Of a DNA stretch of 64,000 nucleotides, positions 39,752 to 47,662 are shown piece by piece; positions within the stretch are counted from its first letter, which is position 1, and each line of letters starts with the position of its first letter. Source of the stretch: a virus; IMG/VR virus record IMGVR_UViG_3300006754_000009, positions 1-64,000 of that record; one strand, written 5' to 3'. Under the pieces are notes generated by a model that searched no databases, was not told the DNA's origin, and saw only the letters and a list, made by a program, of their open reading frames with translations. A program made the translations under genes and the position numbers.

Positions 39752-42700
39752 ATGGAAAGATTAAATTTTAGAGTAAAAAGAACAAACCCAGATATGTATT
39801 CTTCACTACCTTGTAGTGGTGGAACCAACTACTGGCCTATAAATTATAGTATAGACTGTTCTGGAATGAGTATGTATAACGCGACAGCTTCACAATTAAT
39901 GAATGCATTAAATGGTGATATAACTACTTTCCCTGAGGACTTACGACAATGCTCCTTAACTAACCCTTGTGTAATACTATGGGATTTAAATTATTCGGTT
40001 AGTACTGGTCATTGTACTAATATTGGAAATTACGCTTATAAAGCGTTTTATGGGTTTAATGTTCATGATAGTGCACCTACACAAGTAGTTACTGGTGAAA
40101 CCTATGATTATGTAATAACACTTTTCGAGTCATTATACGTAGATTTTAGTAAACCAATTAATACCACTTCTGACTATACCCTATCTTATATTATAGGGCC
40201 ATGTCACTGTGACCCTGGATTAGAAGAAAATCTAAATAACCTAACTTTATTGTTATCCCAAGACTTTAATGATATTGGACATTATAGTATATGGGACGGT
40301 AATATATTTCAGAAAGAAACATTTTCTAATTTTGTATTTACAGCGAGTACATTTGTTGTGGTACCTGGAGATACAATCCAAATATGGAACACTACTGATT
40401 TTAGTTACTATAAAGAGGTACAAGAATTGCCATATACTATTGATTGGGGTGATGGGAATAGTACAACACTTAATTTTTCTGTTGGTGGGGCTATAACAGC
40501 AGAAAACACCTATCCACCAGGCCCACCTATGGAGTATAGAATTACTATAACACAAGATAGCCCATGGGGACCAACTAGTGTGTCCCAAGTTATTACAGCA
40601 CCAAATTATAGTTATCCACAATTAGTTGCTACGAACCAGATACCCGCAAACAGTGCGTTAACTATAAATCCGTCTGGTGTAACGGTGGGTACAGGATATA
40701 CTTCAGGTCCATCTGGTGTTTTTGGTCAAAGTAATTATATCCCATGGGATACAGGAACACACATAGATGAATATAGTGGAATGACTCAATTCCCAAACTG
40801 TTTTGAAGTAACAGGTGTTACTACTAGTATGTTAGGGATATTCCAAACTTATACCACCTTAAATTCCCCAAATTTACCCCCCGGATATGTAATAGGTACT
40901 ATAGTACCAATTGGAGGTGATATTATAAATCCTATAACAAATAATATAGAAACCGGTATGTATGGGCAGATTAATTGGGCAGACCCAATTTATACAGGTT
41001 ACACCATTTCCTCAGCGAATAATGCTACCCCTATTCATTTTTATGATTTCCCTAATGGTATTACACTTTATGTAGCAGAAAGTTGTGGATTAGATGCTCT
41101 TGCTTTTGGTGCGTATGACTGTTTTAAATGTACCGTTGAGGATTGTGAGTATTGTGAAACTAAAGATGAGTATATAGATAGAATTACAGGGATTTGGACC
41201 CCCATCACATTTAATACACAACGAGGAGTATGGTCACCATATACCGATTATATGGTAGGAGATATAGTTTTTGATACTACATATAATACATGTTGTTGTT
41301 TTATGGCTGTAGCCGACATATTTCAAACAGGACTAACTCAGTCATTATGGTCAGGCACACCACCATCCGAAACTTTACAAGGTGTGTGGTACCAAAATAG
41401 TCTCCCTATAGCACATATTTGGGAAGCGTGTTCTCCTGAATGTGTAAATTGTCCTCCAGGAACCACTCTACCATGTGACGATACAACCTTCCCACATGTT
41501 AACTCACCTGTTGCACCATCCCCTAATGTTGGTAAAGCAGGTCTATTTCAAAATGGTTATTCTTACAGTGTTGGTGATTTCGTATTTGGTCAAGAAGGTA
41601 ATTGTTACCAAGCATTATCTGCTACTAGTGGTAATTACCCACCGACCGCATTTACCTCCACAACATATTGGGAATATGTGGGATGTTCTACTTGGATTTG
41701 TCCACAAGATTTAAATAACATACCAGTATTAAGTTGTGAATTAGTTCCTGGTACTGGAATAACAACCTCCACAAATGTAATTCAAGGACACCAATATTAT
41801 GGTGGTTGTTTAGATGATTTTGATGATGGAGAGTGTTATGCGGATAGATGGTTATGTCCAGGACAATATGGGTGTACTGGATGTACACAAATTGACTCTA
41901 CCCATTCTCTATATACTAGTTATGACCCAATGAACCCATTAGCGGGACCAGTATTTGCTAACTCCATAGATTGTGAAGGATGGTGTAACCCACCTGCATA
42001 TTCATGTACAACCCAACAATCCGCTAACCCTAATGCTTGTTGTACATTATTTTCATGTGCAGAAGATGATGCTAATATGACTCCAGGAGTATACACTTCT
42101 CTTGTTACAACCGTAGTAGCTTTAGTTCCACCCGTCCTACCTAATGGTTTAAATATGAATGAATGGTTAGCTATAAATGAAAGCTTTTATTTTACCGGAC
42201 CCCCAACAAATTTCAACTTACCAAATGTTTGTAATAGTGGAACAAATGGGGTAACACCTACTTCCTACGCATGGTCTACGTCAGCTTGTTGTAATTATGA
42301 GGGTTTTGATTATGAATGTTGTACTGGGTGTGTACCAGTTACTTTTGGTGGAGCTTATAACGATTTAGCGGCGTGTCAAACCGACCCAAATAATAATGGA
42401 GGGGCAACCCAACCATGTGGTTGGACGTGTGAAACCATAAACCAACCCTGTATACCATGTTATGATTGTTTCTGTGGTTACGCGGGATATGGATTTACAC
42501 AAGCTGGTTATTCAGCGTGTACAGCAGATTGTCAAGTAATAGAGTCAGCTTGGATATGTGATTGTACCAATAGTATGACCCCATGTACCTATGTAACTCC
42601 CGCTCCAGGACCGGTAGATAATGTAGTTATATTTAGCGGAAATGTTGCTGGTAGTATTTTATGTAATCAACTATGTCCATGTGATGCCGGTTGGGACTGT

Positions 42701-47662: not shown

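Follow-up and report, generated by a model that had tools for sequence, protein, structure and literature searches.

The stretch of DNA analysed here, referred to as the window, comprises positions 1-64,000 of the IMG/VR virus record IMGVR_UViG_3300006754_000009. Its longest open reading frame (ORF) lies at 39752-47662 on the + strand, contains 2636 codons, and is called gene X. Residue numbers are those of its protein, P0001, and lengths are in amino acids (aa). The features identified within gene X, some of which resemble carbohydrate-binding modules (CBM), are as follows, with the evidence in parentheses.

39752..47662, +, gene X, a 2636-aa Cys-rich, Lys/Arg-poor modular protein, P0001 (ORF and translation, composition, 58 homologues)
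40260..41311, +, conserved core, residues ~170-520, with 'YTIDWGDG', a PKD-like stretch, and with the first CBM-like unit, W494..GD..CCC516, at its end (blastp, alignment A5, sub-threshold PKD matches)
41534..41686, +, CBM5/12-like unit, residues 595-645 (model 1 residues 156-206 aligned to CBM12/CBM5 structures)
45149..47659, +, most variable third of gene X, residues ~1800-2636 (identity and gaps per 100 residues)
45521..46333, +, six tandem six-Cys units, residues 1924-2194 (self-similarity, regular expressions against shuffles, alignment A4, AlphaFold secondary structure)
46847..47140, +, CBM5/12-like unit near the C-terminus that bears a CCYCC motif, residues 2366-2463, one of two ~100-aa repeats (repeats, predicted local distance difference test (pLDDT) of 74-86, wide VIA-align search)

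Cysteine accounts for 215 residues of the protein (8.2%). Only 11 of these fall in residues 1-460, and the remaining 204 make up 9.4% of residues 461-2636. Counted per 100 residues, there are 0-5 Cys before residue ~440 and 5-15 thereafter. The other 31 window ORFs that were tabulated contain 0-4.6% Cys. An earlier sequence-only reading of this DNA had described a 2636-aa Cys-rich modular protein with roughly one Cys per ten residues, and the counts bear this out. It had also noted the lack of a signal peptide, and a crude hydrophobic-run heuristic found no signal-peptide-like segment at the N-terminus. The scarcity of basic residues is an anomaly beyond those that it listed. There are 10 Lys and 15 Arg (25 in total) against 169 Asp and 68 Glu, for a net charge of -212.

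The G+C content of gene X is 0.40-0.42, compared with a background of about 0.33, and the excess is confined to codon positions 1 and 2. At third positions the G+C fraction (GC3) is 0.24 in gene X and 0.19-0.23 in the neighbouring genes, and TGT encodes 203 of the 215 Cys. Since GC3 and codon usage match those of the phage, gene X is native to the phage and a foreign origin is excluded. Thus, the term "eukaryote-like" that had been applied to the protein is apt for its amino-acid composition and not for its codon usage, which is the phage's own.

When residues 1-460 were used as a query, 58 homologues were recovered from ENA, JGI, Tara, Logan, and NCBI assemblies, the longest of the contigs being 298 kb. 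These proteins are 1652-2997 aa long, their Cys content is 6.2-8.8%, and Lys+Arg nowhere exceeds 2.7%. A tblastn scan of IMG/VR identified 54 loci. The family is therefore common in marine metagenomes (58 clusters, 54 IMG/VR loci). The length of gene X across loci ranges from 540 to ~3000 aa; fibre genes vary in length. In sister lineages (L036-L054), X is just 540-1250 aa long and is followed by a second gene, X2.

Homologues were aligned in sets of 16 and 28 sequences. In the 16-sequence alignment, Cys is the best conserved of all residues over positions 461-2636 (conservation of 0.83, compared with 0.32 overall), and only one residue type is less conserved than His, at 0.12. Most of the columns that do not vary in alignment A1 are Cys. 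Gene X matched no family in Pfam or PHROGs, and tblastn against 50,697 phage records gave no match, so that no cultured phage with gene X was found among them. Profile searches of the PDB with alignments A2, A3, and A5 gave no matches at E<=10. The sequence thus matches no fibre family described in Pfam, PHROGs, or the PDB. A match of the modules to a well-characterised phage fibre family, which would have spoken against the sequence-only reading, was not found in these three resources. No description of the gene X family was found in the literature searches. Gene X is a real, conserved, and unusual gene.

The N-terminal core is the only part that shorter orthologues share with gene X (residues 169-524, blastp). 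A phmmer search of the short orthologues against P0001 gave no match, while blastp gave the core match. The core is presumed to be the part that docks on the baseplate. The PKD-like motif that had been seen in it is weakly backed. For PKD (PF00801 / PF18911), the window's own core gave no match to any Pfam family, and among 17 relatives PKD was present in three (best E 0.0014) and PKD_4 in two (2.9e-4), all of them below threshold. Toward the other end, residues ~1800-2636 show identities of 0.06-0.29 and gaps of 0.18-0.64 per 100 residues, compared with identities of 0.30-0.62 upstream. They are presumed to be the distal part that determines specificity.

By sequence, the PDB gave only one weak match, that of residues 1656-1728 (44717-44935), about 72 residues, to the capsid-associated chain of Omono River virus, a toti-like dsRNA virus (PDB 7cz6_C / 9thi_A). 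The E-value was 0.005 with the whole protein and 4e-4 with part of it. No weight is placed on this match.

Repeated modules and predicted folds

Regular expressions for the repeats were scored against 1000 shuffles of residues 461-2636. The six-Cys unit was found five times, compared with 0.05 expected, and Y..GD.V..CC[YFC] was found four times, compared with 0.01 expected; neither count was reached in any of the 1000 shuffles. W..Y..GD.V was found twice (0.02 expected). A looser 4-Cys core was weaker, with four found, 0.91 expected, and 11 of 1000 shuffles reaching the observed count. A self-BLAST of the whole protein returned the identity match alone. When fragments were compared with the whole, tandem units were found at residues 2003-2206, a pair of ~100-aa repeats at 2370-2455 and 2470-2560, and mutual similarity among 474-522, 576-641, and 1668-1721. 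Thus the two interleaved recurring modules that had been proposed are present, as both repeat types exceed the shuffled controls and tandem units can be found by fragment BLAST.

Seeded hidden Markov model iteration recovered just the four clearest six-Cys units. Alignment A4, which contains 22 units from the window and eight relatives, gave the consensus WxCxxxxCxCVxDPxGxYxTLxDCxxDxxxCCWTG with six invariant Cys. When its profile was run on gene X, four units had independent E-values of 1e-15 to 3e-10, a fifth had 2e-4, and the sixth (residues 1927-1961) had just 0.69. The six-Cys unit corresponds to the 4-Cys unit with two additional Cys.

Pfam contains no model for the six-Cys mini-domain, which is rare: a search of 1.84 billion representatives with its profile returned 36 at E<=0.001. 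Among 30 newly returned proteins with a profile match, eight have a signal-peptide-like N-terminus by a crude rule, and two of these also contain fn3 and DUF11. Seven shorter proteins bear residues 1920-2370. Five of them are on contigs under 20 kb, and the seven are read as pieces of the gene X family. The mini-domain is a candidate for a compact, protease-resistant scaffold.

Outside the phage family, four proteins with six-Cys profile matches (P0106, P0101, P0100, and P0107) contain 12-16 tandem 4-Cys units of the form W.C...C.......G.Y.S...C...C, for which there is no Pfam model. This 4-Cys mini-domain is uncurated and merits a family definition.

Two regions were modelled with AlphaFold2 from alignments of locus reference sequences. 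Model 1 covers residues 440-1000 (23 sequences, mean pLDDT 59.7) and model 2 covers residues 1940-2636 (18 sequences, mean pLDDT 57.7); the predicted template modelling score (pTM) is 0.31 for both. In model 2, each six-Cys unit is predicted, at low confidence, to be a beta-hairpin followed by a short helix. With neither model did Foldseek give a match at E<=0.001, and the best ESM Atlas score, 0.84, was not informative.

After the Foldseek candidates had been re-aligned, residues 595-645 of model 1 fell on CBM5/12 domains, including the CBM12 of a Vibrio chitin-oligosaccharide deacetylase and the CBM5 of Serratia ChiB. Z values were 5.0-5.7 over 45-49 residues, with a root-mean-square deviation (rmsd) of 1.4-2.2 A and 24-32% identity. 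The individual values were Z 5.7 for 9jeo_A (rmsd 1.4 A, 47 residues, 26% identity), 5.5 for 3wx7 (32% identity), and 5.1 for ChiB. Model 2 was searched independently of Foldseek with VIA-align against 48,161 chains, and chitin-binding domains ranked top for residues 2366-2463. ChiB had a Z of 4.6, Moritella chitinase 4.3, and the Vibrio deacetylase and the fibre of phage Pa193 4.2 each. The six-Cys unit had weak Kunitz-like matches in this search (Z 2.2-3.7). Phage fibres and tailspikes (8kec, 7eea, 9rkv, and 9b45) appear in both structural match lists.

The W-x(4-5)-Y-x-x-GD-x-V units had been called CBM5/12-like, and a CBM5/12-type fold does appear in two separate models, each of low confidence. 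The resemblance in fold is accordingly held with low confidence.

The locus, orf73, and X2

The source record is 89,263 bp in length and was rated 28% complete by CheckV, which implies a genome of roughly 320 kb. It is that of an uncultured marine jumbo myovirus with a contractile tail. Pfam identified genes in the window for a 1154-aa tail sheath, a gp32-like single-stranded DNA-binding protein, a RecA-like protein, a 5'-3' exonuclease, a DnaB-type helicase, ribonucleotide reductase, and Baseplate_J. The Baseplate_J proteins of the nearest cultured phages share just 25-28% identity with that of the window. Three features flank gene X.

31081..39748, +, conserved block of baseplate genes upstream of X: a 153-aa gene, Baseplate_J (31544-33385), and 1197-aa, 598-aa, and 298-aa proteins (Pfam, synteny)
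47733..47954, +, orf73, a small conserved 73-aa gene, 70 nt downstream of X (tblastn, alignments A6 and A7)
47958..48875, +, conserved 305-aa gene bounding the variable slot of X / X2 / orf73 on its downstream side (synteny)

Baseplate_J is the sole gene of the upstream block with a family match, and gene X is the fourth gene after it. The order Baseplate_J (~613 aa), ~1170 aa, ~600 aa, ~300 aa, X was found in all 20 loci inspected. A gene of ~305 aa (301-310 aa) follows X or X2 in 19 of the 20 and was also seen at L045. Four further large proteins, of 1095, 1309, 1167, and 809 aa, are encoded downstream in the same block. Gene X thus lies in a baseplate/tail-fibre gene block of a contractile-tailed phage, with fixed synteny, which agrees with the tail-region location assigned earlier. 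Two traits expected of a fibre were found, namely location in the baseplate-fibre block and a conserved proximal part with a variable distal part.

It had also been suggested that the neighbouring Cys-rich genes form one system with gene X. This is not supported, as the moderately Cys-rich neighbours lack the gene X modules. The 1197-aa protein after Baseplate_J (33488-37081), likewise without these modules, has a long hydrophobic stretch at residues ~505-580 (35000-35230) and then a Cys cluster, with 9 Cys in residues 601-700.

The gene orf73 matched 38 loci at 53-93% identity (tblastn) and is better conserved than gene X. In the short-X lineages (L036-L053), it corresponds to the C-terminal ~65 aa of X2, and 30 clusters of 134-1081 aa carry its domain. 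No relative was found in Pfam or the PDB, where the A7 profile gave chance-level rows. X2 is itself a Cys-rich, Lys/Arg-poor gene, of 225-1078 aa, that follows the short X. As orf73 is either fused to X2 or free, the variable slot always consists of a core-bearing Cys-rich protein and this small domain. The comparison of these sequences indicates that orf73 belongs to the gene X system.

X2 (L036-L053, e.g. L041:12698-15889) contains a repeated motif, GC.DP.A.NYNP.A..DDG.C.Y, with no Pfam family. The possibility that giant X genes are fusions of X and X2 was rejected at the level of detectable homology: hhalign of A3 (distal X) against A6 (X2) gave a probability of 0.1, and X2 has no blastp match to gene X. 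At four loci (L005, L010, L016, and L017), X and orf73 are separated by a further gene of 192-213 aa, one that has no counterpart in the window's contig.

Farther downstream in the fibre block, 62094-62873 (+) encodes a 259-aa protein with 4.6% Cys and a type-I dockerin / EF-hand-like Ca-binding pair (Pfam Dockerin_1, E 8.5e-8).

Cysteine patterns and the proposed function

Taken together, the sequence data and the models make it somewhat probable that the product of gene X is a modular adhesin or tail fibre of great length that is anchored to the baseplate, binds glycans, is held by disulfides within its modules, and acts with a small conserved partner. A position in the virion, the disulfides, the ligand, and the time of oxidation can be inferred as follows. 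The N-terminal core (~170-520), with its PKD-like beta domain, would dock on the baseplate periphery beside the conserved 598-aa and 298-aa proteins. The remaining ~2100 residues would be strung out like beads, as small modules of two kinds that each fold on their own. One may be a beta-hairpin plus helix held by two or three disulfides (the 4-Cys and 6-Cys versions), and the other, present about seven times, a CBM5/12-like beta unit with CC[YF] motifs. These CBM-like units, together with the hypervariable distal third, would bind polysaccharide, either on the host surface or on particles that bear hosts. Within each module the Cys would pair as disulfides, and oxidation, most simply upon release into oxic seawater, would lock the filament. 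A dedicated phage oxidase would not be needed, and none was seen in five partial genomes of the lineage. The near absence of Lys and Arg, with a net charge of -212, may make the filament non-sticky and resistant to trypsin-like proteases, and orf73 could serve as an assembly or attachment element of the same slot.

Residues 461-2636 contain 24 CC, 24 CxC, and 24 CxxxC. There is no CxxC-x(5-30)-CxxC, and thus no paired CxxC ligands of the zinc-ribbon / zinc-knuckle kind in this part. Vicinal CC and CxC are typical of cystine-rich domains. The Cys that vary among homologues also tend to do so together. Variable Cys columns number 153, and for 72 of them another such column with an identical presence pattern lies within 150 columns, compared with 24.8 (maximum 40) in shuffles. 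The co-varying clusters number 23 of size two, three of size three, and three of size four, and substitution accounts for 10 of the 23 pairs. These Cys patterns, the paired gain and loss, the presence of the module in proteins with signal-peptide-like N-termini, and the poor conservation of His favour disulfides over metal.

Genes for redox proteins and maturases were searched for in five partial genomes of the lineage. Erv1/ALR (PF04777) was found in none of the five, though at 28-72% completeness its absence is not proven. DsbA above the cut-off, Thioredoxin_4, and Radical SAM (PF04055) were also found in none of the five, and all control genomes were positive for the last. Thioredoxin is present in two of the five, full-length DnaK in four, and glutaredoxin-fold genes in four, one of which is on the window's own contig (74992-75342, beyond the window). 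Thioredoxin and glutaredoxin genes are common in phages that have ribonucleotide reductase and usually serve it, and ribonucleotide reductase is also encoded in the window. As Erv1, DsbA, Thioredoxin_4, and Radical SAM were not found in the five partial genomes, a dedicated oxidative route is unsupported. The sequence-only reading had proposed an undescribed route for oxidative folding or metal loading, and this part of it is not sustained, as only ordinary thioredoxin and glutaredoxin-like genes were found. Its glycan-binding filament stapled by disulfides or metal fares better. The long modular chain of small Cys-stabilised units is retained, as are the CBM5/12-like folds in the models, and the special folding route is not.

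One of the glutaredoxin-fold proteins, of 137-145 aa, has a CHYC site and a coiled-coil-like tail and adjoins dnaK in two of four records. This adjacency is a lead and not evidence. Other copies have the sites CKFC, CPHC, and CDYC. The glutaredoxin-fold proteins with these four unusual active sites are at loci L061 / L067 (G001) and L059 (G003) and on the window's own contig.

Several observations weigh against a disulfide-locked, glycan-binding fibre. The protein is synthesised in a reducing cytoplasm without a signal peptide, yet ~100 correct disulfides would be required. The total number of Cys shows no even bias, with 33 even and 34 odd counts among 67 homologues (the window protein is possibly counted twice). 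The co-varying Cys pairs are largely clade-level, and 13 of the 23 are indels, so that they represent few independent events. Confidence is low for each of the AlphaFold models (mean pLDDT 59.7 and 57.7, pTM 0.31), and every fold match has a Z below 6, a range that the tool calls common. A CBM5/12 sequence match (PF02839) was found in none of the seven unit segments of the window, which had no Pfam family at E<=10. CBM_5_12 was found in one of 17 relatives, at E 0.08, below the cut-off. Given these Z values and the Pfam result, the units are taken to resemble CBM5/12 in fold without belonging to the family. In addition, neither Pfam nor PHROGs has a tail-fibre family for gene X.

Some of these points would be accommodated if the filament were stapled by metal, with the conserved Cys binding Zn or Fe so that the modules fold in the reducing cytoplasm, and with disulfides absent or secondary. 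It is possible, though not likely, that this is the case. Cytoplasmic synthesis without a signal-peptide-like N-terminus, the lack of Erv1 or DsbA in the five partial genomes, and Cys totals without an even-number bias would all agree with it, and phage fibres with metal ions on their axis are known from T4 gp37 and gp12. It is opposed by the complete lack of paired CxxC knuckles together with the frequency of CC and CxC, and by the His conservation of 0.12 in the Cys-rich part. Moreover, module variants differ by two Cys and not by a four-ligand site, and the module occurs in proteins with signal-peptide-like N-termini. Quite unlikely is a scheme in which the phage directs the making of a ~100-disulfide filament. 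DnaK and the atypical glutaredoxin-fold proteins would keep reduced modules soluble on the tail, and these would be oxidised and stiffened only at or after lysis, to give a redox-triggered chitin/glycan-binding appendage with orf73 as a trans-acting assembly element. That the Cys repeats are cross-linked enzymatically, by radical-SAM thioether stapling, is extremely unlikely. PF04055 was not found in the five partial lineage records and is present in all the controls, and the Cys appear to sit in folded mini-domains and not in short CXXX-type repeats.

Other alternatives concern the role of the protein. It could be a whisker for adhesion to particles, in which the CBM5/12-like units would keep virions attached to marine particles that are rich in chitin and inhabited by hosts, and another large downstream protein is the receptor binder. 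The predicted CBM5/12-like folds would suit such a role, the four large downstream proteins could be the fibres proper, and small modules of a monomer type would be nearer to decoration proteins than to trimeric shafts. The CBM assignment is weak, however, with binding being predicted, and a hypervariable distal third is more in keeping with host-specific recognition than with the binding of a uniform polymer. This role is thus an unlikely one. It is very unlikely that gene X encodes a non-virion protein released at lysis, such as a decoy, a matrix-binding factor, or an anti-competitor factor, with the gene merely located in a structural block. The lack of a family match to any known structural protein would be explained, but the strict synteny in the baseplate-fibre block at all loci examined would not, nor would the conserved N-terminal core, which is as expected of an attachment domain.

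If the adhesin or fibre is disulfide-locked as proposed, it would be, to our knowledge, the most Cys-dense large structural protein of a tailed phage. It would also sharpen the question of how virions assembled in the cytoplasm gain many correct disulfides. With 25 Lys+Arg in 2636 residues, gene X would be almost invisible to trypsin-based metaproteomics, and this may explain its escape from notice.

Comparison with known systems

Among the closest known systems are modular phage tail fibres and tailspikes with carbohydrate-binding modules, for example the tail fibre of cyanophage A-1(L) (8kec), the Pam1 tailspike (7eea), the fibres of Agrobacterium phage 7-7-1 (9rkv), and Pseudomonas phage Pa193 (9b45). 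As in these, gene X follows baseplate wedge genes and has a conserved N-terminus and a variable distal part. They appear in the same structural match lists, which point to small beta modules of the CBM5/12 kind. Carbohydrate-binding modules are familiar on phage adhesion devices. Gene X differs from all four in that it has no sequence or profile match to them, about 9% Cys and 1% Lys+Arg over 2200 residues, and mini-domains of 35-60 residues with no recognisable trimeric shaft.

Among the CBM5/12 domains of Serratia ChiB, the Vibrio chitin-oligosaccharide deacetylase, and Streptomyces ChiC, about 47 residues superpose on the modelled units and the W...Y..GD.V...Y.A pattern is shared. The gene X units fall below every Pfam threshold, unlike these domains, and have extra CC / CCYCC motifs, and their binding is predicted only.

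The six-Cys unit can be compared with Kunitz/BPTI and with cysteine-stabilised alpha-beta motifs, as it appears to be a beta-hairpin and then a helix with six Cys in ~40 residues, in tandem. Kunitz/BPTI domains have the spacing C-x8-C-x15-C-x7-C-x12-C-x3-C, whereas the gene X unit has C-x4-6-C-x-C-x12-20-C-x6-CC, and Z values were just 2.2-3.7. Membership in Kunitz/BPTI was thus ruled out by the Cys spacing and the low Z.

The lineage was also compared with the 'moraphage' by its traits. DnaK was found in four of the five records, glutaredoxin in four of five, and the Lys-tRNA ligase family in none of five. The portion of the moraphage paper that was available makes no mention of cysteine (PMC12619734).

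In cyanophage Pam3, disulfide-linked fibres and wedge are documented by cryo-electron microscopy, mass spectrometry, and sensitivity to dithiothreitol (PMC9942802). Pam3 is likewise an aquatic phage with a contractile tail, and disulfides that form in cytoplasmically made proteins hold the periphery of that tail. It differs in having a handful of inter-subunit bonds, compared with about a hundred putative intramodule bonds in one chain here, and there is no sequence relation. Since disulfides are documented in the Pam3 tail, the Cys in gene X are unusual in amount and not in principle. Pam3 is a precedent to be set beside the earlier statement that phage virion proteins are normally Cys-poor. 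What is new in gene X is its scale and composition, with ~2200 residues of mini-domains that have no Pfam or PHROGs model, one Cys in ten residues, and almost no basic residues.

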